A DNA stretch of 32,250 bases from Myxococcota bacterium (lineage in GTDB: Bacteria; Myxococcota_A; UBA9042; PHBI01; JAWLBL01). Under the pieces are notes generated by a model. The model was given only the letters and a program-made list of their open reading frames with translations. It did no database searches and was not told the DNA's origin. Where the stretch lies: contig JAWLBL010000045.1 in assembly GCA_041687695.1 (NCBI GenBank), positions 1 to 32,250 of the forward strand, given 5' to 3'. Positions within the stretch are counted from its first letter, which is position 1, and every line of letters starts with the position of its first letter. Both the position numbers and the translations under genes were made by a program. This document shows, in pieces, positions 1-32,250 of the stretch.

Positions 1-113
1 CCAGCCGGCCGGCGCGACGCAGGCCTCCGCGTCCGCCGCCTGGGATCGCCGGCTTCCAGCCGGCCGACACCTCACCGGCCTCCGCGTCCGGCGCCTGGGC
101 TCGCCGGCTGCCA

Positions 114-286
114 GAGGGTGTCGCAGAAGGACCAACCGGAGTGCTCCACCTTGGTGGAGCCCCCATCCGGCGCAGCTTGCTGCGCCGGTTTGGTAGCCCG
201 ATCCCGGCGGCAAGCCGCCGGGGCCGGGGCTCCGGCAAGCCGGAGCACTCCATCGCCGGCTCAGCCGTCATCAATACGACACCCTC
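114..286 (-). mobile_element. MITE-like element type A (173 bp), non-coding, inserted in a REP loop
   Basis: Ends GAGGGTGTCGCAG...AATACGACACCCTC form an inverted repeat. Flanks are TGCCA (109-113) and TTCCA (287-291). It is the near-exact reverse complement of 954-1125. Confidence 0.8.
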
Positions 287-456
287 TTCCAGCCGGCCGG
301 CGCGACGCCGGCCTCCGCGTCCGCCGCCTGGGATCGCCGGCTTCCAGCCGGCCGGCGCTTCGCCGCTCTCCGGTTCGGCCTCCTGGGATCGCCGGCTTCC
401 AGCCGGCCGGCGCTTCGCCGCTCTCCGGTTCGGCCGCCTGGGCTCGCCGGCTGCCA

Positions 457-673
457 GAGGGTGTCGTATTGAGGTCACCTTCGGGTGCCGACGTGTCGAG
501 ACACAGCGAGTCCGGGACGGCAACCCGCGCCGGCTCCGCCGGCGCGGAAAGCGCCGCCATGGGCGGCGCACTCCCAAAGCGGGCCTTCGGCCCGCGTAAG
601 CGGCGGGGCGCTCGGCTTTGGTCAACTCCAAGGCGAGCCTGGAGCGCGGGGACGACCCTTTTGCGACAGCCTC
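457..673 (+). mobile_element. MITE-like element type B (217 bp), same terminal repeats, different interior
   Basis: Ends GAGGGTGTCGTATTG...TTTTGCGACAGCCTC. Flanks are TGCCA (452-456) and TTCCA (674-678) within GCCGGC arms. The interior is a string of hairpins. Confidence 0.75.
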
Positions 674-953
674 TTCCAGCCGCCCGGCGTCTCGCTGCCG
701 TCCGCGTCCGCGGTCTGGGATCGCCGGCTTCCAGCCGGCCGGCGCTTCGCCGCTCTCCGGTTCGGCCTCCTGGAATCGCCGGCTTCCAGCCGGCCGGCGC
801 TTCGCCGCTCTCCGGTTCGGCCGCCTGGGATCGCCGGCTTCCAGCCGGCCGGCGCCTCGCCGGCCTGCGCGTCCGCGGTCTGGGATCGCCGGCTTCCAGC
901 CGGCCGGCGCTACGCCGGCCTCTGCGTCTGGCGCCTGGGATCTCCGGCTTCCC

Positions 954-1125
954 GAGGGTGTCGTATCGATGCCGGCTGAGGCGGCCTTGGAGTGCTCCGG
1001 CTTGCCGGAGCCCCGGCCCCGGCGGCTTGCCGCCGGGATCTGGCCGCCAGACCCGGCGCAGCAAGCTGCGCCGGATGGGGGCTCCACCAAGGTGGAGCAC
1101 TCCGGTTGGCCTTTGCGACAGCCTC
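954..1125 (+). mobile_element. MITE-like element type A (172 bp)
   Basis: Ends GAGGGTGTCGTATC...TTTGCGACAGCCTC. Flanks are TTCCC (949-953) and TTCCA (1126-1130). Homologous to 114-286 (inverted) and to 32127-end (direct). Confidence 0.8.
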
Positions 1126-1247
1126 TTCCAGCCGGCCGGCGCTTCGCCGCCCTCCGGTTCGGCCTCCTGGAATCGCCGGCTTCCAGCCGGCCGGCGCCAC
1201 GCCGCCCTCGTTGTTGGTGGCGGCGCCGGGCGCGCTACCCTGCGGGC

Positions 1248-2858
1248 ATGCCCCTGCCGAAGCCTCGTCCGCGTCGCGGCGCGATCTGGCTGTGTTGCGT
1301 CGCAGCATGGCTGGTCGCGCTGGCCGCGCCCGCGCCGGCCGCGCCGCCCCAGCGCGTGCCCTCCGGGATGGGCCCGCATGGGCTGCGTGCCGTCGGGGCG
1401 CTGGATCTGCGCGCGGTGGCTTCGCGTGCCGGCCTCCGGGTCGACGTCGAGCGGGTGGGCGAGGTCTACTACCTGGCGTTCCGGCCCTTGTTCGCCTGGT
1501 CCGACGCGGACGGCGACCCGGCCCTGCTGGTCTCGGTGCCGCTGCGCTTCGAGCTGCTGGACACCCGCGGCGCGACCAGCGACGAGCGCTTCGGCGACCT
1601 GTTCGCCCTCCGCACGGCCGATTGGGCCAGCGTCTGGGACGTCGTGCGCACCGTCGAGCTCCTGCGGCTGGGCGGCCCCGACGCTCGCTTCGAGGCCGAG
1701 GTCAGCACCTTCACGCCGCTGACCCTGGGCCACGGCACCTGGGTGCGGCGCTACAACCCCAACCTGACGGTGACCGGACGCCGGCTCGCCACGCGCCTGG
1801 CCGGCCGGGCGCCGCTGGGCGAGGTCGAGCTGCTGGTGGACGACCCCTTCGACCCGCGCGTCCTGGGGGCGCACGGCGCGATCCGCCCCGCCGGGACCGC
1901 CGACGCGGGCTGGGCGTCCCGCCTGGCGGTGACCGGGACCCTGGTCGCCGACATCGACGCGCCGCTGATGAACCGCCTCGATCTCTTCGACGCCGACCGC
2001 GACGGGCGGCGCGACGAGATCCTGCTGACCGGCGCCGCGGATCGGCCCTCGTACCTCGACGGGCTGGTGGCCGCCTGGGCCGTCGGCGTGGCCCTCGGGC
2101 CCGAGGCGGCCGACCGCGGCTGGTCCGGCTTCCTCGAGATCGGCGGCCTGACCGGGCCGCTGCCGCGCCCCTGCGCCGACTGGGAGGGCCCCGAGGTCGA
2201 GCGATGTCCGGCGGTGTTCGGCGCCGTGAACGACGGGCTCGCGCCGCAGCCGAGCGAGCTGGAGACCGAGCGGGTCGGCGCCCTCGGCGGCGTGGTGGGC
2301 CTCGAGCGACGCCTGGTGACCGAGGGCGGCGGCCGCCTCCTGGGCCGCGTCGAGGGCCGCCTCGGCGAGCGCGGCGCCCACTTCCGCTACTTCGATCTGC
2401 TCTATCCGCTGCAGCGCGTGCTGTTCCGCGTCCCAGACGGCGCCGACGGCGCGACCCTGGCCAACCGCACCAAGGCGCGCGAGGTGCTGGCCGCGTCCGA
2501 CCGGCTCGTCCCGGCGCTCGCGGCCGAGGTCCACTGGCGCTCCGCGGGCGGCCTCGAGGCCGCGGCCGGCGTGGACGCCGCGTTCGGCGCCCCGCAGGGC
2601 GGCTGGTTCGCCCACCTGGGCATGCCCGACGGCCGGCACCTGGGCTGGTCGCTCGCCTACCACAAGCGCGCCAGCGCCGCCGACGAGCTGGGGGACCTGG
2701 GCCGCGGCGCCGTCCTGCTGGCGGCGGCGCGCGCGACCCTGCTGCCGATCCTGCACCTCAACGCGCGCGCCCTGGTCCCGCTGGACGTCGGCGCCCACGC
2801 GCTGGAGGACCGCCTGTTCGACGTCACCCTGGGCGTCGAGCTGGCCTTCGACTACTGA
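1248..2858 (+). CDS. Exported hypothetical protein, possibly outer-membrane beta-barrel (536 aa)
   Basis: In frame with ORF 618..2858, whose upstream part is only repeat DNA. ATG 1248 gives a signal peptide (MPLPKPRPRRGAIWLCCVAAWLVALAAPAPA). C-terminus is an alternating beta-strand ending in an aromatic residue (VTLGVELAFDY). GC3-biased codons. Confidence 0.7.
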   Translation: MPLPKPRPRRGAIWLCCVAAWLVALAAPAPAAPPQRVPSGMGPHGLRAVGALDLRAVASRAGLRVDVERVGEVYYLAFRPLFAWSDADGDPALLVSVPLRFELLDTRGATSDERFGDLFALRTADWASVWDVVRTVELLRLGGPDARFEAEVSTFTPLTLGHGTWVRRYNPNLTVTGRRLATRLAGRAPLGEVELLVDDPFDPRVLGAHGAIRPAGTADAGWASRLAVTGTLVADIDAPLMNRLDLFDADRDGRRDEILLTGAADRPSYLDGLVAAWAVGVALGPEAADRGWSGFLEIGGLTGPLPRPCADWEGPEVERCPAVFGAVNDGLAPQPSELETERVGALGGVVGLERRLVTEGGGRLLGRVEGRLGERGAHFRYFDLLYPLQRVLFRVPDGADGATLANRTKAREVLAASDRLVPALAAEVHWRSAGGLEAAAGVDAAFGAPQGGWFAHLGMPDGRHLGWSLAYHKRASAADELGDLGRGAVLLAAARATLLPILHLNARALVPLDVGAHALEDRLFDVTLGVELAFDY

Positions 2859-3623
2859 CTACCGACCCTGCGCGGCGGCGCGCGGCGGCGCCTCGGGCAC
2901 CTGGGCGCCGGGCCCGTAGGTCCGGTGCAGGTAGGCCACGATGTCCTCGGACTCGTACATGGCGGCCCCGGTGTTCGGGTCCTGCAGGTACGGCACGCGC
3001 ATCTTGCCGCCCAGGGCGACCAGCTGCGGGCGGCGCGGGCTCTTCTTGGCCACGTTCTTGACGTGGTAGGGCAGGTCCAGCTCGTTCAAGGCCTCGCGCA
3101 CCTTGCGGCAGTAGGGCGAGGCCTCGAAGTTCCACAGGACCAGCGGCTCGGCCGGCGCCGGGCGGCCCTGGACCTCTTCCAGCACGCGCAGCCCCCGCGG
3201 TCGCGCGCCGCTGGCGACCGCCGACGAGGCGGTGTTGAGCGGCGACAGCGCCCGGCCCAGCGCGGCGCGGCCGTGGCCGTAGGTCTCGGCCAGGTACGTC
3301 ACGATGTCCTCGCTCTCGTACAGCGACCGGCCGGTGTTCGGGTCGACCAGGAACGGGAACTGCCCCTTGCCGCCCGCCTGCACGACCGCGTCGCGGTGTC
3401 GCGAGCCGCGCGCGCACGGGTAGACGATGGCCTCGAGGTCCAGCTCGCTCAGCGCCTCGCGCACCTTTCGGCAGTAGGGGCAGGCCTCGAGCTCGTAGAC
3501 GATGAGCGGCTGGGCCGGTCGCCGGGCCCCGTCGAGGCCGCCCTGCACACGCAGGCCGCGGCCGCCGCGCAGGATCGACACGAGCAGGGAGTAGGCGTTG
3601 TTCAACGTGACGCGGGTGGACAT
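2859..3623 (-). CDS. Glutathione S-transferase N-terminal (thioredoxin/glutaredoxin-fold) tandem-domain protein
   Basis: Two homologous domains: YELEACPYCRKVREAL...QFPFLVDPNTG..LYESEDIV and WNFEASPYCRKVREAL...VPYLQDPNTG..MYESEDIV. Confidence 0.9.
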   Translation of the reverse strand: MSTRVTLNNAYSLLVSILRGGRGLRVQGGLDGARRPAQPLIVYELEACPYCRKVREALSELDLEAIVYPCARGSRHRDAVVQAGGKGQFPFLVDPNTGRSLYESEDIVTYLAETYGHGRAALGRALSPLNTASSAVASGARPRGLRVLEEVQGRPAPAEPLVLWNFEASPYCRKVREALNELDLPYHVKNVAKKSPRRPQLVALGGKMRVPYLQDPNTGAAMYESEDIVAYLHRTYGPGAQVPEAPPRAAAQGR

Positions 3624-5755: not shown

Positions 5756-7597
5756 TCAGAGGGCGTGACCGTCCACGCGCAGCTGGAACAGGAAGTAGGG
5801 CGGCATGCAGGCGCCCTCGCCAGGCGGGGCAGAGGGCGTGCGGGCGCAGATGTAGTCGTCGCGGCAGGGGCGGGCGGCGCTGCAGGCGCGCAGGGCGCCG
5901 GGGCGCGTGTTGTCGGCCAGGCACTGCTCGAAGGGGATCTTCTGGGCGAGGCACTGGTTGAACCCCACCAGGACCGGGATGCCCGTGCAGGCGGCGGCCG
6001 GGTCCGCGCTGTCGCAGCCCTCGACGCAGACGCCGTTCGGGAAGCCGACCCGGTTGTCGTTGCACGCGGCGTCGGGCCCGCAGGCGCGCGCCGCGACGTC
6101 GCGGACGCGGTCGCGGTGCGGGTCGGCCTGCTGGGTCACCCGGCCCACCTCGCACGGGCCGCCGACCGACGGCCGCGTTGGCAGGCACAGCCCGACGTGG
6201 GGCTCGTCCAGCGGGGCGCAGGCCAGACCGGGGTCGCAGGTCCAGCCGGCGAACCCCGGGTCGCCCAGGCCACAGCGCGCGCCGTAGCCGCCGGAGGGCG
6301 AGGTGCGCTCGGCATGCGGCCGGCTGGGGTCGGGCAGGGCGCCCGCGGCCAGCGCGGTCACCCAGGCGGCGCGCCGGGGCAGGTCCTCGGTCAGGTGCGG
6401 CGAGCGGCCCAGCGCCAGGGCGTCGACGCGGCGCGCCGGATCGGGCTCGTCGCCCAGCAGGTGGAAGCCCGCGACGCTCCGGCTCTGGTGGCAGCCGGCG
6501 CAGCTCAGGCCGTCCAGGCGCCGCACCAGGGCCTCGGGGCTGGCGATGGTGCGCGTGCCGGCCAGCGGCAGGTCCCCCAACTTCCGCGGGTCCAGCACCT
6601 GCCGAAACGGCCGGTTCGCCAGCCGCGCCAGCCCGCGCGGCGCCACCGACACCGCCCGCTCGGCCAGCAAGTGCTCGGGCAGCAGCGCCGTCCCCGCGTC
6701 GATGGCCGCAAGGTTCGCCGCCACCCACGCCCGCAGCTCGGCCTGCAGCTTCCGGCTGCCCCGGATGCGCGCCACGTCGGGCGTGTTCTCGAGCCGCCCC
6801 GGGACCAGCCGCCCGCCCTTCTGGTGGAACACGCGCATCAGGTACTCGGCGTGCCCGGCCATCCCCGGGTGCACCGTCGACGGCCACCGCACGCTCTGCA
6901 GGTTCACCTCGACCGACCTCAGCCGGTCCAGCCCGACGCGCTCGCTCGCCAGCGGCCCGTCGGCCGCCACCAACGCCTCCGCCAGCGCCTCGCCCGTCAG
7001 CCCCTCCAGCCGCACCCACCGCTGGGCCTCGGCCCGGCACCCCGCCACCCCGGTCACCGTCCCATCCAGCCAGTACACCACGTTCACCGTCATCGGCAGC
7101 CGCGATGCCACCCGCAGCCCGCCCACCTCGGTCGCGTAGCTCAGCCGATGGACCAGCCGCACCTCGCCGCACCGCTCCGGCGCGAACGGCTGCCGGTCCA
7201 GCCGCGCCGCCACCCCCGCCAGCTCGAACCGCGCCTCGTCCGACGCCAGCCACCGCGCATCGAACAGCCGATGCCCATACCGCAGCCCCACGCCGCTCTT
7301 CGGGTCCGCCGCCGCGATCTCGGCCAGGTCCGCCGTCACGCGCCGCAGCACGTCCCGCGCCAGCGGCGCCTCCGACAGCGCCTCCGTCGTCACCGCCTCG
7401 CGCGTCCCCAGCCGCGCGCCCAGCCCCATCCCGGCCGCCTCCAGCGCCCGCAACGCGTCGGGGTCTGAGATCAACGTCGTCGCCCGCCCCGGCGCCGCCG
7501 CCCGCGCGTCCCCCGGCTGGTCGCCACCCGCGACCCCGCCCCCGATCAGCGCCCCAGCGACCACTCCGGCCGCGAGCAGCCCACTCCACCTCCGCAT
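5756..7597 (-). CDS. Exported hypothetical protein with single CxxCH (putative c-type heme) and Cys-rich C-terminus
   Basis: Signal-like N-terminus MRRWSGLLAAGVVAGALIGGGVA, motif SCAGCHQS and many Cys in the last ~170 aa. Start 7597 vs 7624 is uncertain. Confidence 0.75.
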   Translation of the reverse strand: MRRWSGLLAAGVVAGALIGGGVAGGDQPGDARAAAPGRATTLISDPDALRALEAAGMGLGARLGTREAVTTEALSEAPLARDVLRRVTADLAEIAAADPKSGVGLRYGHRLFDARWLASDEARFELAGVAARLDRQPFAPERCGEVRLVHRLSYATEVGGLRVASRLPMTVNVVYWLDGTVTGVAGCRAEAQRWVRLEGLTGEALAEALVAADGPLASERVGLDRLRSVEVNLQSVRWPSTVHPGMAGHAEYLMRVFHQKGGRLVPGRLENTPDVARIRGSRKLQAELRAWVAANLAAIDAGTALLPEHLLAERAVSVAPRGLARLANRPFRQVLDPRKLGDLPLAGTRTIASPEALVRRLDGLSCAGCHQSRSVAGFHLLGDEPDPARRVDALALGRSPHLTEDLPRRAAWVTALAAGALPDPSRPHAERTSPSGGYGARCGLGDPGFAGWTCDPGLACAPLDEPHVGLCLPTRPSVGGPCEVGRVTQQADPHRDRVRDVAARACGPDAACNDNRVGFPNGVCVEGCDSADPAAACTGIPVLVGFNQCLAQKIPFEQCLADNTRPGALRACSAARPCRDDYICARTPSAPPGEGACMPPYFLFQLRVDGHAL

Positions 7598-7759
7598 CTT
7601 CGAACCCCGCGCGCCCCATCCCATGCGCCCAAGCTACTGCGCCGCGCTGCGCTTGGCGACCCGAGCAAACGTTCGTGGTGCCATTTGCAACCAACGCGCT
7701 TTGGGCTATGAGCGCCCCACGTGCGGTGGGGAAGCCGCGCGTCCACCCGGAGAACTACC

Positions 7760-8426: not shown

Positions 8427-12965
<4,539 letters not shown>

Positions 12966-13621: not shown

Positions 13622-15022
13622 TCAGCTCGCCAGCGCTTCACGCAGCGCCCGCAGGCTGGCCTCGCGTTGCTCGGGGCCGCGGAAGCCGAAGGGCAAGGAC
13701 GCCAGCATCACCCGCACCCGCCGCCGCCCCGAGGTGACGGACGCCAGGGTCGTCGTCGGTCGCGCGTCGAGCCCCAGCGCCGGATACAGCAGCACTGTGT
13801 CGACCCGCGGCGCGTCCGACAAGCTCGCATAGGCCAGCGCCTGGTGCAGATCGGCGCGGTGCTGCGCTTGCAGCGGCTCACTCAGGCCGGCCCAGCCGTG
13901 CCGCGCCAGCAGCTGCAGATGGGGCTTGTACTTGGCGTCGATCCACACGACGTGCTCGGGGCCGCGCAGCTCGACGTCGGGCGCCAACGACTCCATCGAC
14001 GCCACTCCGGACCACTGCAGAGCCCGGCGTGTGCCTCCGAACGGGCTACCCACCAGCCCCAGCATCCCGCCCAGCTCCCCGGCCACCGCCGAGACCCAGG
14101 CCTCCCAGACCTGGTCGACCGCCAGGCTCCAGGCCAGCCCGTCCAGCACCCGCGCGCCGCCCAGGCCGCGCTCCTCGGCGATCCAGCCCATCCCCTCGAC
14201 CGCCGCGCGGATCCACTCGCTGACCGCGGTCGACGCCCACGAGGCCGGCGGCCGCCGCGCCTGCCCCGCGCCCACCGACAGGCTCAGCTCGCGCGCCCGG
14301 GCGACCAGCTTGCGCGCGATCGGCGCGTCCGGTACCGCCCGCAGCTCCTCCTCCAGCCGCCCTAGCGTCCAGCGCACGGCCGACAGCAGATCGGGGTCGT
14401 CGTCCGGCTCCGAGAAACGACACGGGAAGCTGGTCCAGCGGCCACTCGGGACCTGCCGCGTCGCCCACCGCGACCACTCGACCGCGCCCCGCGGGCTGCC
14501 GCGCTCCTCGCTGCGCGGGACGAAGGCGCGCCGCCGATGGTTCAGAAGCCCCGCGATGCGCTCCAACACCGGCCCCGCCAGGATCCAGGGCGGCACCTCG
14601 CGCGCCGACCCGGGGACCAGGTGGGTCCCGCCCAGCGTCGGCTCGACCGCGAAGCCGATCGCCCCGAACACCGCCCCCAGGGCCGACCAGTCGAAGCGAG
14701 GCTTGACCAGCACGCCCGCAACGACCCGCCGGGTGGCCGGCGACACCAGCGGCGCCGCGCCGACCCGCCGCCCCGGATGCAGCAGCACGCGTGGCCGTGG
14801 ATCGATGCGCACCTCGGGCCGCAGCTCCAGCCGCGCCAGCTCGGCCCGGTTGGCCTCCAGGAAGGGCTCGACCCAACGGTCGCTCTTTGGCCCGACGTCC
14901 GTGTCGTGCACGGCGACCGGATCGCCCTGGTCGACGGCGCGAAACAGCGGCCGCGTCGCGACCTCGGCCGCCAGCAGCCGCCCGGCCCGCGAGCGCCCGC
15001 GCTGGGTGCGCCCTCGGCTCAA
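13622..15022 (-). CDS. mcrC: McrC-like PD-(D/E)XK restriction endonuclease subunit (about 466 aa)
   Basis: LAPDVEL...WIDAKYK...ADLHQALAY catalytic signature, immediately downstream of the mcrB-like gene. A TTG at 15022 overlaps the mcrB TGA (TTGA). The start is inferred. Confidence 0.85.
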   Translation of the reverse strand: MSRGRTQRGRSRAGRLLAAEVATRPLFRAVDQGDPVAVHDTDVGPKSDRWVEPFLEANRAELARLELRPEVRIDPRPRVLLHPGRRVGAAPLVSPATRRVVAGVLVKPRFDWSALGAVFGAIGFAVEPTLGGTHLVPGSAREVPPWILAGPVLERIAGLLNHRRRAFVPRSEERGSPRGAVEWSRWATRQVPSGRWTSFPCRFSEPDDDPDLLSAVRWTLGRLEEELRAVPDAPIARKLVARARELSLSVGAGQARRPPASWASTAVSEWIRAAVEGMGWIAEERGLGGARVLDGLAWSLAVDQVWEAWVSAVAGELGGMLGLVGSPFGGTRRALQWSGVASMESLAPDVELRGPEHVVWIDAKYKPHLQLLARHGWAGLSEPLQAQHRADLHQALAYASLSDAPRVDTVLLYPALGLDARPTTTLASVTSGRRRVRVMLASLPFGFRGPEQREASLRALREALAS

Positions 15023-16536
15023 AGCCCCGACCCGCCGACCTGCTGTAGCCGCGCCTCGACCCGATCGGCCAGCGCGGCGATGGCCTCGCTGGCCCCGCCG
15101 CACAGGCGCTCGGCCAGGTAGTCGCGCAGCAGCGGCAGCAGCTCGAAGCGCAGCCGCCGCGCGACCCTCGCCTCGCGTCCCTCCGGCGCCTGGTCGCCCC
15201 AGGGGTCCAGGAAGTAGGCGTGCCCCGGGATGAGCTGCAGCGTCTCGTCGTCGGCGTACTCGGTGAAGGTGTGGACCACGTCCTGGAACAGATCGATGGC
15301 CAGCGGCACGCCCTGCTGCTCCACCGCGTCCAGGTCGGGCCACATCGGCACGAAGGCGAAGCGCCGCCGGATGGCGACGTCCATGCGCGCGATGCTGCGG
15401 TCGGCCGTGTTGCGCGTGCCCAGCACCAGCAGGTCGCGGCTCAGCTGGAGCTCGGACCCCTCGCCCTCGGGTGTGTGCGGCAGCCGCACCGAGCGCTCCG
15501 ACTCGCCGACCTCGAACAGCACCACCGCCTCGCCCAGCACTCGCGCCAGATCCGCGCGGTTGATCTCGTCCAGCACCAGCAAGTGCTCGCCCTCGCGCGC
15601 CTTGGCGTTGGCGACCAGCAGGTCCCCCGGTCGCACCTCGAAGGCCAGCCCGCCCGCGGTCGGCTTCGGATACAGCCCCACCACGAAGTCCTCGTAGGTC
15701 CGCGCCGCGTGGAACTGCACGTTGGTCGACGAGCCGACTTGCTCGGCCAGCTGATAGGCCAGCCGTGTCTTGCCGGTCCCCGGCGGCCCCTCCAGCACCA
15801 CGAAGCGGCGCTCGCGCAGCAGCCTCAGCACCTCGGCCGCGTCCAGCGCCGGAAAGACCGCGCCGCTCATCGCGGTCAGCCGCTGCTCCCATCGTTTCCC
15901 AGCCGCTCCCGTGACGGGGATCCCATGTTCGCTGAAGAACAAATCCAGCAGATCGGCCACCGCTTCAGTATCGGTCTGCGAACGCACCGTTACCGCGGCG
16001 TAGATGTGCCGGGAGTAGCTCTTGAGGGCCTTGCTTATGTCCGGCCAGTGTTCAGTTGTCGGAGTGGGAACCGGCTGACCAATGTCCAGAAGATCCGGCT
16101 TGACCCATAGCGCGCCTCGATGCAGCCGTGACAGCGCTCGCAGCCGTCGCCCGTGCCCCGGACGCCCCAGGATCGCTGTGTCGGCCCCGAAGCCGTCGGT
16201 GCCGATGACCAGCACCGCCACGCTGCCCTGTTCGGCCGGCATCCAAACGAAAGAGGTACCTTGGTACGGACCCGAGGTCGGGTTCTCGGAGGTGATCCAG
16301 CCGGCGTATGAGGCGTTGTCGTCCTTCTTCGGCAGGTTGACGCGCTTCTGGAATCGCTCCCGATAGTGCGCCTGCGAATTGAACCTCTCGTCGTAGACCC
16401 GGTCCATCAGCCCGCGCACTGCGTCCGTGTCGCCCATCAAGGACCAACCACGGCCCGCGGCCATCCCCTCGATCAACTCATCGAACGCCGTCGTCGCCAC
16501 GCGCCCCTCCTCGTCCTGGTCCAGCGCAGCCGACAT
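15019..16536 (-). CDS. mcrB: McrB-like AAA+ GTPase subunit of a modification-dependent restriction system
   Basis: Walker A GPPGTGKT, QFH..TYEDFV.G, Walker B LDEINRA, McrB signature GTRNTADRS, D.AIRRRF and GHAYF. Confidence 0.93.
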   Translation of the reverse strand: MSAALDQDEEGRVATTAFDELIEGMAAGRGWSLMGDTDAVRGLMDRVYDERFNSQAHYRERFQKRVNLPKKDDNASYAGWITSENPTSGPYQGTSFVWMPAEQGSVAVLVIGTDGFGADTAILGRPGHGRRLRALSRLHRGALWVKPDLLDIGQPVPTPTTEHWPDISKALKSYSRHIYAAVTVRSQTDTEAVADLLDLFFSEHGIPVTGAAGKRWEQRLTAMSGAVFPALDAAEVLRLLRERRFVVLEGPPGTGKTRLAYQLAEQVGSSTNVQFHAARTYEDFVVGLYPKPTAGGLAFEVRPGDLLVANAKAREGEHLLVLDEINRADLARVLGEAVVLFEVGESERSVRLPHTPEGEGSELQLSRDLLVLGTRNTADRSIARMDVAIRRRFAFVPMWPDLDAVEQQGVPLAIDLFQDVVHTFTEYADDETLQLIPGHAYFLDPWGDQAPEGREARVARRLRFELLPLLRDYLAERLCGGASEAIAALADRVEARLQQVGGSGL

Positions 16537-17438: not shown

Positions 17439-17730
17439 CGCGTCCCGAGGTTCGTGATCGGCGCCTGGCCTGCCGAGGCATCGATCCCGAGGCTCGGGAT
17501 GGGCGCCTTGGCCGGCAGGTGTCGATCCCGAGGCTCGTAAAGGGCGCCTTGGCCGGCGATGTGTCGATCCCGAGGCTCTGGGTGGGCGCCTGGGCTGCCG
17601 AGGTGTCGATCCCGAGGCTCGTGAAGGGCGCCTGGGCTGCCGAGGTGTCGATCCCGAGGCCCGGGATGGGCGCCTGGTCTGCCGAGGTATCGATCCCGAG
17701 GCTCGGCGCAGACACCTGGGAGGCCAAGGT
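17439..17730. repeat. Tandem array of about 7 degenerate 42-bp units (core TCGATCCCGAGGCTC-N6-GGCGCCT)
   Basis: Core starts at 17481, 17522, 17564, 17606, 17648 and 17690 (spacing 41, 42, 42, 42, 42), plus a degenerate copy at about 17439. Confidence 0.92.
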
Positions 17731-17748: not shown

Positions 17749-20700
17749 TCAGGGTTGCGGCGTCAGCCAGACCACGAGGCTATCGCATTCGAGGCCCTGG
17801 GCGCGCAGCTGTCCCAGCGGCGTGTCGGGTCCCTCGGCGACCAGGGCGCCCAGACGCGCCGTCAGATCGACCGCGCGCCCCTCCTTCAGGACCCCAACGA
17901 GGCGCCACGAAGCGCGGCGTCCCGCGCCATGGGCCGAGCGCCGGAAGGACGTGATCTGGTTGAGGCTCAGGTGGACCGACCACAGACCACGCGCTTCGGT
18001 GATGGCTTTGGTCTCCCAGCAGACGGCCTGCAGCGCCGCGCCGTCCTCAGCGAGCCCCAGGAGGTCGAAGCCGGCGTTGCCCCACCGCTTCGAGACGTGC
18101 AGGCCAGACTTCAGCGACTCCGGGGCCGGCGTCTTGGTCCACATCGTCAGCGCCTCGTCCAGCGCATCGGCCGTCCGGCTCCGCGTCGGGACCGCCTGCA
18201 GTAGCACGGCGATGGCCTCGTCGAGTCGGCCGGCGTGGCGCGAGGCCGTCAGCAGCTCGTGCGTGCGCTTGGCCAGATATTCCAAGGCCGCTCGCTCGGC
18301 GGCGTCGCCGGCCTCGGCCTGCACGGCGGCGCGTCGCAGGTAGTGCTCGGTCGTCGCGGGCGTCAGGACCTTTTCCTGGCCACGGTCATCCGGCGCGACC
18401 AGCGACGGCGGAGGTGCGCCGTCATAGGTGCTCAGCCGAGTCACCGGGTCGAAGTGGACGGGGCGCCAGTCGTGGAGCCAGGCCTGCAGCGCCTCGGCCG
18501 AACGCGGCGCTCGGTCGCCTTCCTTCGAGCGCAACCACGCGTGCGTCACCGCCGCCGGCTCGAAGCGCCATCGCTGTAGGCGCGGGCCGACGTGGTGGTC
18601 GAGGTCGGCGAGCCCAGCGCCGCCATCCTCCGTGTAGGCGTCCAGCAAGGCTAGGAGCGCCCGCCGGTGGAGCTGCTTCCAACGTCCCCACGCCTCACGG
18701 TGCGCGGAGTGGAAGTCGAAGACCGGGAGGAACCGCGCGCACTCCAAGGCGTCGGGGTGCCGGGCCAGCCCCGCGGTGAGGGTCTGCTCGTCGGCCTGGT
18801 CGGCCTCTTCGGTGGCGCCGGGGAGGGCGACGAGGTCGTCGGGCACCAGCCGCTGCGGCCACCCCGAGGGATCGAAGGCGACCCTCGGCGCGAGGCCGCA
18901 GCGCGCCAGCGTGTCGAGCAGCGCCTGGCGCAGCCGCGCCAGCTGCGGCCCGGGCAGGGGCTGCAGCGCGCGCTCATAGGGCCCCTTGAGGACCACCGCT
19001 GCCTCGCGTTCGAGCCGCGCGTCGAGGGCCTTCGTGTCGCGGTCGCGGTCAACCCACCCCAGCGCCTGAGCCAGCACCGGGGTCAGCTGCCGGTTGCCCA
19101 GCACCCAGTCGGCCAGGAGATCGGCGAAGGGCTCCAGATCGACGTCGGCGGCCTCCGCGACGAAGTAGGCGTCGATGCTGCTCTCGTCCTTGCCGCGATC
19201 GGGGCGCGACATCGCTACCCGAGGTGTCGTGTCCTTCGTGTCCAGCCGCCCGTCGGGGACGGTCAGTCGCATGTGCAAGGTCAGCCGCTCGACCTGCCGC
19301 AGCCGCAGTCCCCGCCAGCGGTCGGCGCACTGCTCGGGCAGCGGCACCGGGATGCGTGTCGCCTCGGCCAGCGCGAACAGGCTCGGGAGCAGTCGTTCGA
19401 GGCGGACGCGCACCTCGCTGGCCTTCGACGGCACGGACTCGGCGCCGGGATCGAGCGCCTCGTCGAACTTGATGGTGCGGGACTGGACCCAGGTCGGAAC
19501 GGAGTCTCCGCGCTGGGCCACGTCGGCCGTGGCGACGGTCAGGCGCGGGAAGTGGCGCCGCAGGCGTTCGCGGTCGCCGCCGTCGGTGGCGAAGACCAGG
19601 TCGTCGGGCAGGCGCCAGGCCAGCTCGCGCGAGGCGAAGGAGCGTGCGTCGTCCGCCCCGACCCAGGCGAGCATCGGCAGGGGGGCGCAGTGCGCGCCGG
19701 CGGCGCTGGAGATGGCTTCGACCAAGGGTCCCATCAACTCGATGAGGGCGGTGCGGGCTTCGGGGCGCTGTTGGAGGCGGGTCAGGTCGAGACCGCGGGC
19801 CGCCTGTAGCAGAGCGATCGCTCTCGCAGCGTCGCCATGGCGCAGGTCCGACTGCTCCAGACCGTCGGCCGCCCCGAGCTCGATGAGCCATGAGAGGAAT
19901 TCGCGGCGCAACTTGGAGGCGTGGGGTGGCCGCGCGAACCCCCAGACCACGTGAAAGAGCCGGGAGCTGCTGGGCAAGACGACGATCTCGCGCGGGGCGA
20001 GGGCCTCGCGGGGGGGCCCGAAGGCGGCGGGCGAGGGCAGCGGACGCGCGGCCCGTTCGCCGTCGGGATGGGCCAGCGAGGTGGGCACCCAGGGCCAGGT
20101 GGCCAGCGGTTCACGGACGCCTGGGACGTCGAGCAGCGCTCGCAGCCAGGGACGCAGCTCGTGGAGCAGCGGGTGGAGCCAGGCCCCCGGCGGCCTGCCG
20201 AGGGTCGCCAGCGCCGCGGGTGGCGTGGCGACGTGTCCTCCGGGCGAGCGGAAGTACAGGGCCGGCGGACTCGCCAGCGGCGGCACCAGGCCATCGTCGG
20301 CCCCCTCGACGAGGACCAGGCGCGCTCCCGAGGGTAGGCGCTCGGACAGCGGCGTGACGCCCAGGAACGCCAGAAAGGCGGTGACCAGCTTCGCATCGGC
20401 GTCGGGGAGCCCCAGGGCCTCGACCCGGACGTTGGCGAGGGTCAGCTGGCGGGCCGGCTCCCAGTGGTCGTCCGTGGTGGGCAAGAACAGCGTCCCCAGG
20501 GCGCGACCGGCTCCCCGAGCGTCCGAGGCGTCCGGCTCGCGCAGCCACCAGCCCCAGCCGTAGCGCTCGGGCTGCCCGGCGGGCGGCTCGTTCTGGTTGC
20601 CCAGCCTGCGGCGGAAGAGGTCGAAGGCGAGGCGGATGAGCCCGCGCTGCTGGTCGCTGGCGATCCTCGGGTCCTGGTGCAGCGGATCGCACCAGCAGCG

Positions 20701-22620
20701 CGGGTCGTCCCCACCCGAGGGCAGCTGGCGCAGGTTGGCCAGCACCGCCCAGCGTTCGAGGCCCACCAGGCCCGCGGGGCCGTTGCGCTCGCCGAGCGAT
20801 CCCGGCAGCCGATAGGTCGTCAGCGCGCGGCCGGCGGTCTGCAGGGCCTCGGGCAGGTCGAAGGCCTGGTCGTCGTGGCTCGCGTCCACCGCGAAGATGC
20901 GCACCTCGGCGCGCTGCACCTCGCCGCGCACGATGCGACTGGGCAGGGGGAAGGCGCGCTCGACCGTCACGGCGGCCGAGACTTCGTCGTGGCGACAGGC
21001 CGTGAGCGGGATGAGCGGGACCTGCGCGTCCCGGCGCAAAGGGGCGAGCAGCGCGTGGGCGAAGCGGTCGAAGACCTTCCCCGATTGATGAGGAGCCAAC
21101 AAGTCGAGCCAGGCGACGGTGGCCTCCCAGAAGGCATCGTAGACGGCGCGGGGATACACGCGATCCCCCGAGAAGAAGCCCCGCGCGAGCGCGGCCCAGC
21201 GGTCGGGCTCGAAACGCTTGGGGTTCTCGGACCCCATCTCCTTGGGTCGCTTCTCGGCAAAGAGCAGCCTACGAATGTCGTCCAGCAACGGGCCCCAGGT
21301 AGACAGCTTCTTGGGGTTGAGCCGCGTCCAGAAGGCCGCGTCGACAAGCTCGGGTCCTGGCGCCGTGACATCGGCAGCCGGGATGCGGGTGGGAGCGGGA
21401 AAGCGCGCGCCGACGGCGGCGAAGGCGCCAAGGACGTGCAGCTCGGCCGCCAGGCGGAGCAGAGTGCGGTTGTAAGCCGCGGTCGCGTCCTCGCCCTGCC
21501 AGCTGAGTCCCTTGCGGTCGAGCGTCATCTGGAAGTCGGCGTGGACGTCCAGCCCGGGTGCGACGCGCTGCTGCGACGGGAGGAAGTTGAAGAGCTGGCC
21601 TGGGTCGGTCGCGGGAAGCCACGCGACGGCGACGCCGGGCTGCTCAACGGAGTGGCCGGCGGCTTTGGCCCGCGCGACCAGATCGGGATCGGTGCACTTC
21701 CAGCTGGCGAGCCAGAGCGTCCGCTCGTCACCGTCAGTCGAGGTGCGCCGCGCGCGATCGCCGAGGAGCACTTCGACGCTGAGGGGCGGCCTCTGCTTGC
21801 GGCGACGGTGAACCCCGACGAAGTGCAGTCGGGCTTCGAGCAGCTCCTCGACCGAACCTCGCAGCTCGTCGGCGCCAGCCTCTTCGAGCGGGACCAGGAC
21901 GATGGTGGTCCATAGGTCGAGATCGAGTCGAGGGGCTGAGGGAGCGCCGAGGCGCGGCAGCGGGAAGTAGAAGCTGGGATGTCGGCGATCCTGGGCCGGA
22001 TGGCGAGCGAGGGGCGGGTCGTCGGGCCAGATGCTCGCGATGACCTCGGGATCTGCGGAAGCCATCAGGGCGCTCGGGGTCCCCTCGCGCAGCATCTCGA
22101 GGCCCCACCAGCTCCCGTCGTCCAGGCGGCTCCAGACCTCGACCCGCGACGCGACCGAGAAGACCGAGCGGAAGCCGACGCCCTTGTTGCCGACGCTGTC
22201 GTTCGGGTCCTTGTTCGATGTGCTGAGGGAACACAAGGCCTGGAAGTCGGCGCGGCCTGGTCGGCTGGCGTCTTCGACCCGACCGTCGTAGTCGTGGTCG
22301 GGGGCCACGGTCAGCGGGGCCGCGCCATCGTTGGCGACGACCAGGCAGCCGTCGACCAGCTGCACGAGGACCCGCTGGTGCGCGCGGTCAATGGCGTTTT
22401 GGAGCAGTTCGAAGGCGACGCGTGAGCCGTACTGGCGCTGTACCGACGACTCGCCCCCGAGCTGTTGGCGGATCGTCTCGGCGCCGACTCGCAGGTAGTA
22501 GGCGTGATGGCGGCGAAAGGCTTGTACGACGTCGGCCCACCTCGGCGCTGCGGGCGAGCTGGCGGGGGCTGGAGCCTGGGCGGGTCTGGCCTCGGGGCGC
22601 TCGCGGATGGCGGTCGTCAT
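17749..22620 (-). CDS. Sacsin-like N-terminal GHKL/HATPase protein with C-terminal DUF3883 (NO VEIN-like) PD-(D/E)XK nuclease domain (1623 aa)
   Basis: N-terminus: FELLQNAID, VANDG, ALCSLSTSNK, GNKGVGFRSVF, later HADFQMTLDRK. C-terminus: GDAAERAALEYL, GNAGFDLLG, WETKA and LSLNQ. Confidence 0.85.
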   Translation of the reverse strand: MTTAIRERPEARPAQAPAPASSPAAPRWADVVQAFRRHHAYYLRVGAETIRQQLGGESSVQRQYGSRVAFELLQNAIDRAHQRVLVQLVDGCLVVANDGAAPLTVAPDHDYDGRVEDASRPGRADFQALCSLSTSNKDPNDSVGNKGVGFRSVFSVASRVEVWSRLDDGSWWGLEMLREGTPSALMASADPEVIASIWPDDPPLARHPAQDRRHPSFYFPLPRLGAPSAPRLDLDLWTTIVLVPLEEAGADELRGSVEELLEARLHFVGVHRRRKQRPPLSVEVLLGDRARRTSTDGDERTLWLASWKCTDPDLVARAKAAGHSVEQPGVAVAWLPATDPGQLFNFLPSQQRVAPGLDVHADFQMTLDRKGLSWQGEDATAAYNRTLLRLAAELHVLGAFAAVGARFPAPTRIPAADVTAPGPELVDAAFWTRLNPKKLSTWGPLLDDIRRLLFAEKRPKEMGSENPKRFEPDRWAALARGFFSGDRVYPRAVYDAFWEATVAWLDLLAPHQSGKVFDRFAHALLAPLRRDAQVPLIPLTACRHDEVSAAVTVERAFPLPSRIVRGEVQRAEVRIFAVDASHDDQAFDLPEALQTAGRALTTYRLPGSLGERNGPAGLVGLERWAVLANLRQLPSGGDDPRCWCDPLHQDPRIASDQQRGLIRLAFDLFRRRLGNQNEPPAGQPERYGWGWWLREPDASDARGAGRALGTLFLPTTDDHWEPARQLTLANVRVEALGLPDADAKLVTAFLAFLGVTPLSERLPSGARLVLVEGADDGLVPPLASPPALYFRSPGGHVATPPAALATLGRPPGAWLHPLLHELRPWLRALLDVPGVREPLATWPWVPTSLAHPDGERAARPLPSPAAFGPPREALAPREIVVLPSSSRLFHVVWGFARPPHASKLRREFLSWLIELGAADGLEQSDLRHGDAARAIALLQAARGLDLTRLQQRPEARTALIELMGPLVEAISSAAGAHCAPLPMLAWVGADDARSFASRELAWRLPDDLVFATDGGDRERLRRHFPRLTVATADVAQRGDSVPTWVQSRTIKFDEALDPGAESVPSKASEVRVRLERLLPSLFALAEATRIPVPLPEQCADRWRGLRLRQVERLTLHMRLTVPDGRLDTKDTTPRVAMSRPDRGKDESSIDAYFVAEAADVDLEPFADLLADWVLGNRQLTPVLAQALGWVDRDRDTKALDARLEREAAVVLKGPYERALQPLPGPQLARLRQALLDTLARCGLAPRVAFDPSGWPQRLVPDDLVALPGATEEADQADEQTLTAGLARHPDALECARFLPVFDFHSAHREAWGRWKQLHRRALLALLDAYTEDGGAGLADLDHHVGPRLQRWRFEPAAVTHAWLRSKEGDRAPRSAEALQAWLHDWRPVHFDPVTRLSTYDGAPPPSLVAPDDRGQEKVLTPATTEHYLRRAAVQAEAGDAAERAALEYLAKRTHELLTASRHAGRLDEAIAVLLQAVPTRSRTADALDEALTMWTKTPAPESLKSGLHVSKRWGNAGFDLLGLAEDGAALQAVCWETKAITEARGLWSVHLSLNQITSFRRSAHGAGRRASWRLVGVLKEGRAVDLTARLGALVAEGPDTPLGQLRAQGLECDSLVVWLTPQP

Positions 22621-27994: not shown

Positions 27995-30900
27995 ATGCGT
28001 CGTTCATCCATTCGTTACGCGGGTTTCGCGGTTGTGTTGGCGTCCCTGGTGGCCTGTGGCTCACCGGGCTCGTCGCCCGTGGGGCCGCTGCCCGACACCA
28101 TCGACGGGGACGTCCCTGGCGACGTGCCCAAGGCCGACGGCGAGGGGCCGGACGGCCACGAGGGCGACGAGGGGCCGCTGCCGGACGGCCACCTCCCCGA
28201 TGGTGACGAAGGCGACGAGGGCCAGCTGCCCGACGGCGAGCTGCCCGACGGCGACGAGGGCGACGAGGGCCAGCTGCCCGACGGCGACGTCGGCCCGGAC
28301 CCCGACGGCACCAACGACACCGACGACGGCGGCCCCATCGTGCCGGTCGGCTGCGAGCCGCTGGCGCCCATCGCGGGTGGCGACACCTGCGCGGTGACCG
28401 AGGGCGACCCCGAGGTGCTGCTCATCCAGGGCGACCTGGTGCTGCCCAACGGCATCCAGGAGGCCGGGCAGCTGCTGGTCGTCGACGGCAACATCGCCTG
28501 CGTCGGCTGCGACTGCGCCGCCGACCCGCAGGCCGCGGGCGCCACGGTCATCACCTGCCCGAAGGGCGTGGTCTCGCCGGGCCTCGTCAACGCCCACGAC
28601 CACATCACCTTCGCCGAGATGAAGCCGGTCCCGCACACCAGCCGCTACGACCACCGGCACGAGTGGCGCACCGGCGCGAACGGCAAGCAGAAGCTGTCGA
28701 CCAGCCAGAACAAGCACGCCAAGGGCGATGGCTGGGGCGAGATGCGGCAGGTCATGGCCGGCACGACGAGCCTGTTCGGCTCGGGCGGCGAGGGCGGCTT
28801 CCTGCGCAACCTGGACGTGGCCGCGCGGCTCGAGGGCCTCAGCCACGGCACGGCGGACTACAGCACGTTCCCGCTGGGCGACTCGAACGGCACGATGCTG
28901 ACGACCGGCTGCAACTACCCCAAGTTCGACCAGCCCGGCACCGTGCTGAAGAACGTGGCCTACGTGCCGCACGTCTCCGAGGGCATCAACACGGCGGCGC
29001 GCAACGAGTTCCTGTGCCTGTCCGGCATCCAGGCGGGCGGTCAGGACCTGACCGAGCCCAACAGCGCCTTCATCCACGGCATCGGCCTGCGCACCGAGGA
29101 CATCGGGCTGCTGGCGGCCGAGGGGACCGGCCTCGTGTGGTCGCCGCGCTCGAACACCGATCTGTACGGCATGACCGCCGACGTGCCCATCTATCACCGC
29201 CTGGGCGCGATGATCGCCCTGGGCACCGACTGGACGGCCTCGGGGTCGGTCCACATCCTGCGCGAGCTGTCCTGCGCCGAGGAGTGGAACGACGTCTACT
29301 GGGGCGGCTACTTCTCGGACGCGCAGCTGGTCGCGATGGTCACCCACTGGGCGGCCGAGCTGCTGGGCTTCGCGGACGTGCTGGGCGCGCTGGTGCCGGG
29401 CAAGGTGGCGGACGTCACCATCTGGGACGGGGCGATGAACGACGGCTACCGCGCCATCCTCGACGCCGGCGTCCAGGACACGGTGCTGGTGCTGCGCGGC
29501 GGGCTGGCGCTGTACGGCGACGCGAACCTGATGGCGGCGCTGACCGGGCCCGGTGACTGCGACGCGCTGGACGTGTGCGGGCGCGACAAGCAGCTGTGCA
29601 CGCCGCGCGAGTTGGGGATGACGACCAACCAGCTGCAGAGCGAGCTCGGCTCGAACGTGTACGGCCTGTTCTTCTGCGGTCAGCCCACCAACGAGCCCAG
29701 CTGCCTGCCCTCGCGGCCCGGCGAGTACAGCGGCCTGCCGACCGCGGGCGACGCGGACGGCGACGGCATCCCGGACGCGCAGGACAACTGCCCGGATCTG
29801 TTCAACCCCGACCGTCCGGTCGACAACTTCGTCCAGGTGGACACCGACGGAGACGGGCTGGGCGACGTGTGCGACCCGTGCCCGCTCGACGCGAACACGA
29901 CCGCCTGCTCGTCGGTCGATCCCGAGGACGTCGACGGCGACGGCTACGGCAACGCGCTGGACAACTGCCCGGGCGTGGCCAACCCCGACCAGCTCGACAG
30001 CGACGGCGACGGCAAGGGCGACGCCTGCGACGCCTGCCCGGACGACTACAACCCGGCCGGCCAGGCGTGCCCGGCCAGCATCTACGACGTCAAGAAGGGC
30101 GTGGTCCCGGTGGGCGCGGCCGTGATGATCCCCAGCGCCATCGTGACGGCGGCCAAGAGCGGCGACTTCTTCATCCAGGTCTCGCCGGCGGACACCGAGG
30201 GCTACCAGGGCCCCGAGTTCTCGGGCCTGTACGTGTTCGGCGCCGGGGCGGCCAACACCCCGCCGGTGGGCGCGCGGGTGCGGGTCAACGGCGTGGTGGC
30301 CGACTACTTCGGGCAGATCCAGCTGAACAGCCCGACGGTCGAGGTGCTCGAGGCGGCCGCGGGCGTGCCGGCGCCGCTGGTCATCGACCCGGCCGACGCG
30401 GCGCCGGGCGGGGCCAAGGAGGCCGCCTACGAGGCGCTGCTGGTGCAGGTGCAGGACGTCGAAGTGCTGGACACGACGCCGGCCGGGCAGACCGGCGAGA
30501 CGGTGGTCGGCGAGTTCCTGGTGACGGGCAACCTGTCGGTGGACGACTACCTTTACCTGCTCGATCCGATGCCGGCCGAGGGCGCGGTGCTGCCCGGGCT
30601 GACCGGCGTGCTGCGCTACAACTGGGAGCGCAACAAGCTGCTGCCGCGCTCGGCCGACGACGTGCTGCTGGGGCCGCCGAGCCTGTTGGCCTTCGGCCCG
30701 GACGAGGTGTTCCTGTACGAGGGGCAGGAGGGGGCGACCGCGCCGGCGCTGACGGTGACGCTCAGCTGGGAGGCGCTGGAGGACACGTTCGTGGCGGTGA
30801 CGCCGACCGAGCTGGTCGCGGGCGGGGGCGTGACCGTGCCCGCCGGGCAGAGCCAGGCGACGGTGCTGGTGGCCAGCGGGCTGCCGGTGGGGACGACCAC

Positions 30901-31768
30901 GCTGACGGCGACGCTGGACGACGCCAGCCTGCAGGCCGACGTGACCGTGCTGGCGGCGGACTCCGTGCCGGCGGTGGTGGGGCTGTCGCCCGAAGACGGG
31001 ACCGGGTTCGTGGGGACGCCGGTCGAGTACGAGCTGACCCTGAGCCACCCGGCGCCGCCGGGCGGGCTGTCGGTCGACGTCTTCGTCACGGGCGGGGCGG
31101 CCGACGCGCCGGCCACGGTCACCGTGCCGGCGGGGGCCACGACGGCGACGTTCACGGTGCTGCCGAGCGAAGAGGCGACCCTGGTCGTCGAGGCCGAGAC
31201 CGCGACGGGCGGCGTGTCCGCGACGCTCGAGGTGGTCGAGGGGACGCTGACCGGGCTGATCCTCGTCGAGGTGTTCTACAACCCGGGTGGCACGGACGGC
31301 GGGCTCGAGTGGGTCAAGCTGTTCAATGGCACGGGCGCGGCGGTGGATCTCTCGGGATACTCGCTGGGCCACGGCGGGGCGGACTACACCTACGGCAAGG
31401 TGCAGCTGGCCGGCGTCGTGCCGGCGGGGGCCTGCTGGACGGTGGGCGGGACGCCGGCCGCGCTGGCGGGCAAGCCGGTGGTCGACCAGGAGCTGCTGTT
31501 CGAGCCGAACATCCAGAACAGCGGGAGCCAGGCCGACGGCGTGGCGCTGTTCGACGTCACGGCGGCGCAGATCACCAAGACCACGGTCCCGGTGGACGCG
31601 GTCGTCTACGGCGGCTCGAACACGGCGAACCTGCTGGGCCCGGACGGGCAGCCGGCGCCGGTCCACGTCGGCGACGCCGGCAGCGACAAGAGCATCGTCC
31701 GCACCAGCCTGACCACCTGGGAGATCAACGCGACGCCGGACTCGCAGCAGTGCGTGGTGATTCAGTAG
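27995..31768 (+). CDS. Multidomain lipoprotein: amidohydrolase (deaminase-like) + thrombospondin type-3 repeats + OB-fold + Ig-like + lamin-tail domain (1257 aa)
   Basis: Lipobox [23 protein letters not shown] and [19 protein letters not shown] repeats; [46 protein letters not shown]. Confidence 0.88.
28151..28294 (+). repeat. Coding tandem repeat, 3 x 48 bp (DGxEGDEGxLPDGxLP) in the lipoprotein linker
   Basis: Units [16 protein letters not shown] / [16 protein letters not shown] / [16 protein letters not shown]. Confidence 0.8.
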
Positions 31769-31889
31769 TCGACCCGCACCAGTAGCTTGTTCGAAGGCGG
31801 CCTCCTCGCTGTCCCCCGGCGACGGCGGGGCGGGCCGCCGCGGGGCGAGCTTTGGTGTGGCCGGCGCGGTCGATGGCGCCAGCGGGGCC

Positions 31890-32126
31890 GGTGGCGGTCC
31901 GGGCCGGCTGGAAGCCGGCGGTCCAGGTGAACGCCGGGGCCTGTGGCGGTCCGGGCCAGCTGGAAGCCGGCGGTCCAGGTGAACCTCCGGGGTCCGTGGC
32001 GGTCCGGGCCGGCTGGAAGCCGGCGGTCCAGGTGAACGCCGGGGCCGGCGACGGGTCCGGCCGGCTGGAAGCCGGCGATCCGAGGGCGCTGGACGCTGAG
32101 GCCGTGGCGGGTCTGGCCGGCTGGAA
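31890..32126 (-). repeat. Tandem array of five REP-like palindromes in reverse orientation (GCCGGC-TGGAA-GCCGGC), 52-56 bp period
   Basis: Loops at 31909, 31961, 32014, 32066 and 32122. The last is interrupted by a MITE-like element. Confidence 0.9.
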
Positions 32127-32250
32127 GAGGGTGTCGTATTGATGCCGCCGAAGGCGGCCTTGGAGTGCTCCGGCTTGCCGGAGCCCCGGCCCCGGCGGCT
32201 TGCCGCCGGGATCTGGCTACCAAACCGGCGCAGCAAGCTGCGCCGGGTGG
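32127..32250 (+). mobile_element. MITE-like element type A, truncated by the window edge
   Basis: Begins GAGGGTGTCGTATTGATGCC directly after GCCGGC-TGGAA. Interior matches 954-1080. Confidence 0.8.

Follow-up and report, generated by a model that had tools for sequence, protein, structure and literature searches.

REP1 arrays and inserted elements of the window

The window, which is the whole analysed stretch of 32,250 nucleotides, comprises the entire contig C45 of a 7.97 Mb assembly in 63 contigs (99.27% complete) and carries tandem arrays of a hairpin repeat, REP1, near both of its ends. The REP1 hairpin (GCCGGCT-TCC-AGCCGGC) has the stem GCCGGCT, the loop TCC and, in the array at 1..1195, a GGATC tag. 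Several of the hairpins are associated with short elements bounded by the inverted repeats GAGG(G/C)TGTCG(C/T)A. The features of both arrays are as follows:

1..1195, + strand: REP1 tandem array of 55-bp units with one REP1 hairpin per unit; 11 cores, three of them interrupted
109..113, + strand: left target duplication TGCCA, flank of the 114-286 element
114..286, + strand: type A MITE, 173 bp, with IS1182-type ends and a REP2 doublet in its interior
138..163, + strand: REP2 hairpin, left member of the internal inverted doublet, with GGAG tag and CTTG centre
226..251, - strand: REP2 hairpin forming the right half of the inverted doublet inside the 114-286 type A MITE
287..291, + strand: right target duplication TTCCA, flank of the 114-286 element
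452..456, + strand: left target duplication TGCCA, flank of the 457-673 element
457..673, + strand: type B MITE, 217 bp, with the ends of type A and a different interior
551..574, - strand: REP3-type hairpin in type B, with GGAG tag and CAT loop; a like architecture adjoins the Y1 gene at C54:488
674..678, + strand: right target duplication TTCCA, flank of the 457-673 element
949..953, + strand: left target duplication TTCCC, flank of the 954-1125 element
954..1125, - strand: type A MITE, 172 bp, in opposite orientation to 114-286
1126..1130, + strand: right target duplication TTCCA, flank of the 954-1125 element
31883..32126, - strand: second REP1 array, 52-bp units, terminating in a half-REP and the loop copy TGGAA (32122-32126)
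32127..32250, - strand: type A MITE cut by the contig end; starts after TGGAA and continues in the end of contig C5

Re-reading of the window reproduced the three elements, the fourth at 32127, their ends and their flanking pentamers as described in an earlier note, which had been made from the sequence alone. The elements at 114-286 and 954-1125 are members of one family with 93% identity and lie in opposite orientation, as was also claimed there. The type B element has a second full copy at C32:13928-14145, with 95% identity and a perfect duplication. The end of contig C5 overlaps the truncated element at 32127 by 99 nt and supplies its other end and the second TGGAA. No Rfam family reached its gathering score in window positions 1-1300.

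Excision of each window element together with five bases yielded spacings of 55 bp in ten out of ten cases, in agreement with the claim that removal of an element plus one loop copy restores the phase of the array, while excision with 0, 3, 4 or 6 bases gave 60, 57, 56 or 54 bp at the three sites. Of the lengths tried, removal of five bases alone restores the 55-bp phase, and the duplication is therefore one of 5 bp. All three flanking pairs in the window are imperfect and two have one variant junction in common, with positions 95-123 and 438-466 identical over 29 nt. This variant junction is present three times genome-wide, at these two sites and at the end of contig C26, where it is preceded by the unit that precedes type B in the window and followed by a type A end. 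The window array has therefore been shuffled, either by recombination or by assembly. Because of the identical 29-nt junctions and their three occurrences, the two TGCCA/TTCCA mismatches probably represent one event that was copied by recombination or shuffled in assembly, and owing to this reuse the three sites in the window carry less weight than the copies counted genome-wide.

Between the two arrays, the frame at 8427-12965 (+ strand, 1512 aa) has a P-type ATPase (E1-E2) core from residue 717 and a long N-terminal part without Pfam match, and the 1257-aa protein encoded at 27995-31768 (+ strand) combines amidohydrolase, thrombospondin type 3 and lamin-tail domains. The long frames at 17749-22620, 13622-15892 and 5756-7624 (all - strand) and at 1247-3061 (+ strand) have no Pfam match at E 0.001; some of these may be shadow frames in DNA of 74% G+C. 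A separate 42-bp tandem array of 6.3 copies is located at 17443-17706. Its unit includes GAGGTGTCGA, which lacks one base of the MITE end motif and adjoins a GATCCC tag, and the likeness to the MITE end may be due to chance.

Genome-wide census, target site and independence of insertions

A BLAST search of the own genome with the 114-286 element as query identified 170 non-overlapping type A loci, of which 79 are near full length and 67 have both ends good. The set of 67 was defined by at most two mismatches in each 10-bp end, and the remaining 12 near full-length copies were dropped for more than two mismatches in an end. Flanking pentamers are identical in 45 of the 67 copies, differ by one mismatch in 17 and by three to five mismatches in five; perfect direct repeats of other lengths are confined to a single one of 3 bp, with none of 4, 6 or 7 bp. 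Four perfect pairs deviate from the REP1 loop consensus (TTCGA, CGAAA, CCATA and TACTT), from which it follows that the duplicated pentamer derives from the site and is no part of the element. The mismatch rate in the 62 good pairs (17 of 310 positions, 5.5%) is comparable in magnitude to the divergence among type A copies (median identity 92.5%, i.e. a median difference of 7.5%), as expected of ageing duplications. The pattern of half-REP, five nucleotides and element end occurs 86 times in the genome, compared to zero for the reversed control. With lengths of 168-218 bp, multiple copies, terminal inverted repeats, a target-site duplication of 5 bp and too little space for an internal transposase gene, the elements have the characteristics of MITEs (70-300 bp).

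Fifty-nine of the 67 type A copies reside in REP1, where the two orientations are represented by 35 and 24 copies. The genome-wide search for element ends with tabulation of their flanks bore out what had been proposed from the window, i.e. targeting of REP loops in both orientations with a 5-bp duplication, as most copies are in REP loops with the pentamer duplicated. Eight copies lie outside REP1, and several of the non-REP1 sites fold weakly. REP1 cores are intact in 193 cases and split by an element with both ends in 71, so that roughly a quarter of the REP1 copies are occupied; these 71 were retained from a loose split-REP search with 451 candidates, the other 380 of which lacked ends on both sides and were mostly noise. 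REP1 is a RAYT-associated REP, a high-copy tagged hairpin flanking a Y1 gene: the Y1 gene at C22:44011 (PF01797) has one REP1 upstream and seven downstream in opposite orientation. The REP1 tags are GGATC or GGACC instead of GTAG. A second abundant hairpin, REP4 (185 motif matches in the genome), carries an element at only five or six sites according to a reading of 13 entries. In each case the insertion directly follows GCCGGC, in a single register shifted by one base from the hairpin axis; these few and possibly non-independent sites suggest that sequence may be preferred in addition to symmetry.

At C27:125278, a lone end-like motif follows a REP1 half-site and is succeeded by non-MITE sequence and a gene start; it may be left over from a different element with such ends. 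The own genome has 11 Y1-transposase matches (L013-L023), located on contigs C59, C40, C61, C26, C48, C54, C22, C47, C15 and C53. At least four of them have a flanking hairpin family of their own, with the tags GGATC, GGAG, ATAG and GGACC, and five are near contig ends.

Type A DNA was represented by a single 30-nt match and no full copy in 30 sampled relatives, none of which belongs to the same family or genus, and the junction pattern was found in none of 17 other genomes of the order. Among 106 other genomes of the class, end-pair patterns of approximately 144-199 bp were limited to one 156-bp element in G005, a genome of the same order. This element (L165:1501-1656, corresponding to G005:C48:33013-33168) has similar ends, an unrelated interior and hairpin-like arms around it, and is without perfect duplication.

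The 67 copies are distributed over 51 loci. In nine of the ten multi-copy loci all copies have a single orientation, and several tandem neighbours pair on the tree of copies; those copies are therefore later duplications. Nearest neighbours from other loci are alike in orientation in 20 of 44 cases versus a shuffled mean of 22.1, and copies of 98.8% identity are found in opposite orientation or in different targets. The tree of copies needs 24 label changes versus 26.5 after shuffling. As it is weakly resolved (6 of 60 branches starred, with starred branches forcing three changes only), the weight is carried by the pairwise orientation test. Relatedness between copies at different loci does not predict their orientation, which bears out independent insertions. 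The earlier argument for independent insertion rather than array duplication therefore stands for the separate loci, and part of the copy number is attributable to local tandem duplication.

The most serious rival to repeated transposition is a history of few insertions, after which the unit of REP1 and element would have spread as a passenger by means of the REP1 RAYT and recombination between arrays. The uniform orientation and tree grouping of tandem copies, the presence of a REP1-flanked Y1 gene together with the absence of an IS1182 gene, and the shuffled appearance of the window junctions are in line with such spread, but it is at odds with the unclustered orientation between loci, the at least four non-consensus pentamers that are perfectly duplicated, the eight copies outside REP1 and the at least four different interiors that share the same ends. 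As the main route it is largely refuted and we regard it as improbable; for the tandem copies it is the right account.

IS1182-family relatives and proposed mode of mobilisation

A survey of 30 DUF772 loci from the same class led to locus L060 in genome G086, which contains a full IS of 1802 bp (L060:1145-2946) with the ends GAGGCTGTCG(T/C); a duplication of GGAA and arms of 7 bp flank the element. Its transposase, P0001 (536 aa), has DUF772 and DDE_Tnp_1_6 domains and scores 283 bits on the model NF033551 (cut-off 270), and weakly on IS5 models (47 bits, cut-off 140). P0001 alone was scored on NF033551; the other loci of the subgroup were gathered as P0001 homologues. P0001 as a single query against the genome contigs retrieved itself and one distant match only. 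In an alignment of 44 homologues, D181, D321, R448 and E453 are invariant, which we take to form the DDE centre. With this alignment 80 metagenome loci were added, and an end pair was obtained at 73 of 84 subgroup loci, the other 11 giving none. The majority ends of the subgroup (column majority) are GAGGGTGTCGCAAAAG on the left and GAGGGTGTCGTAAAAG on the right, with the same C/T asymmetry as in the MITE ends. Because the MITE motif, with two mismatches in 10 allowed, served as seed in the end search, the independent part of this likeness lies in positions 11-16 and in the spacing around the gene. Compared with the nearest IS ends, the four MITE ends of the window have 1, 2, 2 and 0 deviating bases out of 16. 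This range of zero to two differences supports assignment of the MITE ends, as judged by their sequence, to the IS1182-family type; together with the score of P0001 above the NF033551 cut-off it substantiates a resemblance that had been suggested in the earlier note.

Flanks were compared for 61 IS, omitting L085 (the same element as L076) and 12 loci without 20-nt flanks. The flanks pair at seven or more of eight positions in 34 of the 61 IS, versus a random mean of 0.5 and maximum of 3, so that a palindromic target is common to the MITE (59 of 67 in REP1) and its IS1182 relatives. Perfect duplications in this set are mostly of 4 bp (n = 13), with three of 5 bp and one of 6 bp. The nine IS with the C/T end type of the MITE have two perfect and two near 5-bp duplications and no perfect 4-bp duplication. 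Inverted or unmatched flanks, found in 34 of the 61 IS, probably reflect chimeric assembly of multicopy elements or rearrangements. A pyrimidine-rich arm is present in 21 of the 61 IS flanks (survey of metagenome loci L086-L164; control 0.24). A build with (C/T)GTC tag, 8-9-bp stem and 4-5-nt loop occurs in 15 of the 61 IS flanks (control mean 3.3, maximum 8). CGTC REPs of this same build are reported to be without a dedicated transposase (PMC3733652). In the surroundings of the L060 IS (760-1144 and 2947-2990), a GTAG-tagged hairpin follows the element. The reading frame before the element may resemble the opposite strand of a Y1 gene, and the IS may sit in a RAYT locus.

The own assembly was searched for a cognate gene in several ways. 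The domains PF05598, PF01609 and PF13751 (DUF772, DDE_Tnp_1 and DDE_Tnp_1_6) had no match in the assembly, P0001 found neither a match nor a remnant in the own genome, and the 44-sequence profile against all stop-to-stop frames of at least 30 aa gave a best E value of 0.24. Among 39 end-like motifs that face contig ends or gaps, 30 are type A and one more is a short type A end; none of the remaining eight looks like a full IS in REP1. The segment C46:22150-24059, with 1.7-1.9 kb between end motifs, was considered as a candidate IS and turned out to consist of individual MITEs and REP1 units together with a small gene. A full IS with the same ends and a transposase, for which the earlier note had suggested a search, was recovered from other genomes (the L060 subgroup), and no autonomous IS1182 partner was found in this assembly of 63 contigs and 99.27% completeness. 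Mobilisation in trans by a DDE transposase is accordingly proposed from relatives elsewhere, which match in ends and hairpin target; the part of that proposal which called for a cognate gene did not hold for the assembly. Loss of the donor appears more likely than its collapse in assembly, because no remnant was detected and the break-facing ends are MITE ends.

We consider it highly probable that gene-less mini-elements with IS1182 ends were inserted one by one into the REP1 tip, in trans, by a DDE transposase of the IS1182 family. The observations to be explained are the ends, the 5-bp duplication, the target, both orientations, the empty REP1 copies and the hairpin-flanked full IS with the same ends; for the enzyme step and the mode of recognition we infer the following course. 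The transposase would bind the 12-16-bp ends, excise or copy the element and join it to the tip of REP1 by cuts staggered by 5 bp. The two-fold symmetric REP1 is probably extruded as a cruciform in this step, and a GCCGGC half-site next to the cut would be locally preferred. Repair would then duplicate the REP1 tip, and the two-fold symmetry of REP1 would permit either orientation of insertion. The donor IS may since have been lost from the lineage or be absent from the assembly. Unequal recombination would later have produced the tandem units of REP and MITE, and decay presumably followed as well. As the interior of type A is an inverted REP2 pair, each jump likely moved a REP doublet too.

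A DDE transposase of another family with similar ends (IS5 group or ISNCY) is a very unlikely mover. Other DUF772 elements of the class have the related ends CAGGCTGTTG and GAGCCTGTCGG, P0001 has its weak score on IS5 models and no donor was found in this assembly, but those DUF772 elements duplicate TTAG, CTAG or CTAA and their ends match less well, whereas the IS1182 subgroup agrees at 14-16 of 16 end bases and in the hairpin target. An origin of the pattern in short-read assembly over repeats has a negligible chance of being correct: 37 of 126 contig ends have these motifs, gaps of N are located inside some element copies and one junction is reused three times, but the copies differ by a median of 7.5%, are mostly inside contigs and have site-specific pentamers duplicated, and assembly could have shuffled a few junctions without being able to create 51 loci.

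REP cargo of the elements and comparison with known systems

Folded as DNA, type A forms a closed structure of multiple hairpins (-61.2 kcal/mol, z -7.9), the core of which is an inverted pair of GGAG-tagged REP2 hairpins around two more hairpins. The doublet at 138-163 and 226-251 has the organisation of a REPIN, with inverted tagged hairpins that fold together. Of 288 REP2 motif matches in the genome, 236 are in intact or decayed elements: 191 have an element end 21-38 nt upstream (peaks at 23 and 35 nt; random 0.9%) and the end is a decayed one in a further 45 (random 4 of 500). Three further matches are at contig ends and 49 are free. The predominance of REP2 copies inside elements argues that a DDE transposase likely spread the REP2 hairpin. 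No REP2 was found within 1.5 kb of the 11 Y1 matches, five of which are close to contig ends, and GGAG-tagged hairpins built like REP2 flank the Y1 genes at C26, C54 and C15. The same ends carry at least four different interiors; in addition to type A these comprise type B with two full copies, one of 168 bp at C10:144721, and others at C23:8884 and at C46:23870-24059. Non-type-A interiors have hairpins of the REP3 and REP4 kinds, which flank the Y1 genes at C54 and C15. The data fit either order of events, an invasion of a small MITE by REPs or the capture of REP clusters by IS ends.

As with IS1272 and TnSha1 of staphylococci, the ends of the elements point to a DDE family with members that target inverted-repeat structures (PMC5678879, PMC4923244); Siguier et al. 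are given in both papers as the source on palindrome targeting within the IS1182 family. IS1272, itself of the IS1182 family, is described in these sources as deleting part or all of the stem-loop, with no duplication and no sequence preference; duplication of the loop only is drawn as a possible pathway (PMC5678879, Fig. 13c). Unlike IS1272, the elements described here are gene-less, keep both arms of the hairpin, duplicate its tip by 5 bp and have REP1 as target in 59 of 67 cases; stem-loop replacement of the IS1272 type was therefore not observed. For ISPse1, another IS1182 member, a 4-bp duplication is listed (PMC3281130).

IS that target REPs include IS1397, ISKpn1 and ISPsy8 (IS3), IS621, ISPpu9/10 and ISPa11 (IS110), and ISRm22 (IS4) (PMC1525189, PMC3184786). 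The five families given in the available portion of PMC1525189 are IS3, IS110, IS4, IS256 and IS5, without IS1182, and the word MITE does not appear in the main text of that paper as available. With these IS the elements share a fixed insertion point in the REP, as in ISPsy8 (3 bp) and ISRm22 (6 bp), which insert at the symmetry axis with a short duplication; the REP-targeting IS are autonomous, while the window elements are non-autonomous (PMC1525189, PMC3184786). Length (70-300 bp), IS-type terminal repeats, duplication and stable fold are in common with the bacterial MITEs RUP, Correia/NEMIS, ERIC and Nezha, and as for Nezha the matching IS is found only in another species. Unlike the MITEs described in the available parts of these papers, the elements have the REP loop as regular target and a REP doublet as core (PMC3184786, PMC3733652, PMC2229807).

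REP1 resembles RAYT REPs in flanking a Y1 gene in inverted arrangement, and the type A core resembles group-3 REPs in being an inverted doublet of tagged short hairpins; unlike the GTAG-tagged REPs, the tags are GGATC/GGACC and GGAG, respectively (PMC3116915, PMC8266576, PMC3733652). REPINs inserted into or beside REPINs (PMC3116915) and REP dimers within longer palindromes (PMC3733652, section 7) are on record. Unlike REPINs as portrayed there, the type A doublet lies between DDE-type ends flanked by a 5-bp duplication, and no Y1 gene was found beside REP2. In the open-access literature we found no paper on IS1182-derived MITEs in REP loops or on MITEs with REPIN cores. Targeting of REPs by IS and of hairpins by IS1182 is already published, and the behaviour is for this reason less novel than first supposed. 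What is distinct here is that the elements carry other hairpin repeats inside, the main element consisting mostly of a REP doublet of a second family.

Nothing in these results overturns a principle. The 51 loci, with one base-exact cut position and a 5-bp stagger, constitute a clean natural data set that bears on how an IS1182-family transposase chooses the hairpin tip and keeps the hairpin, in contrast to IS1272, which destroys it. Moreover, a short element directed to the tips of intergenic hairpins offers a testable model for site-selective insertion. The spread of REPs is described as poorly understood (PMC8266576). A REP family with most of its copies enclosed in DDE-bounded elements would demonstrate that a second enzyme can drive both REP counts and REPIN population models. 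Tentatively, and with somewhat less than even confidence, we suggest that IS1182 ends act as a general REP carrier: REP2 would owe about four fifths of its copies to a DDE-driven MITE in the loop of a rival REP instead of to its own tyrosine transposase, and the same ends occur with at least three other REP cargoes. If this is general, DDE hitch-hiking would be a second route of REP spread, and the widespread IS1182 subgroup would be a specialist of REP loops including CGTC-type REPs.

Twenty-four of the 49 free REP2 copies are on contig C31. Tandem arrays of REP2 doublets without element ends are located at C31:20694-21651, C31:90711-93552 and C3:359750-360108. No RAYT was present beside the free arrays on C31 and C3 among the listed frames or Y1 matches. 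These arrays are likely the free form of the type A core.
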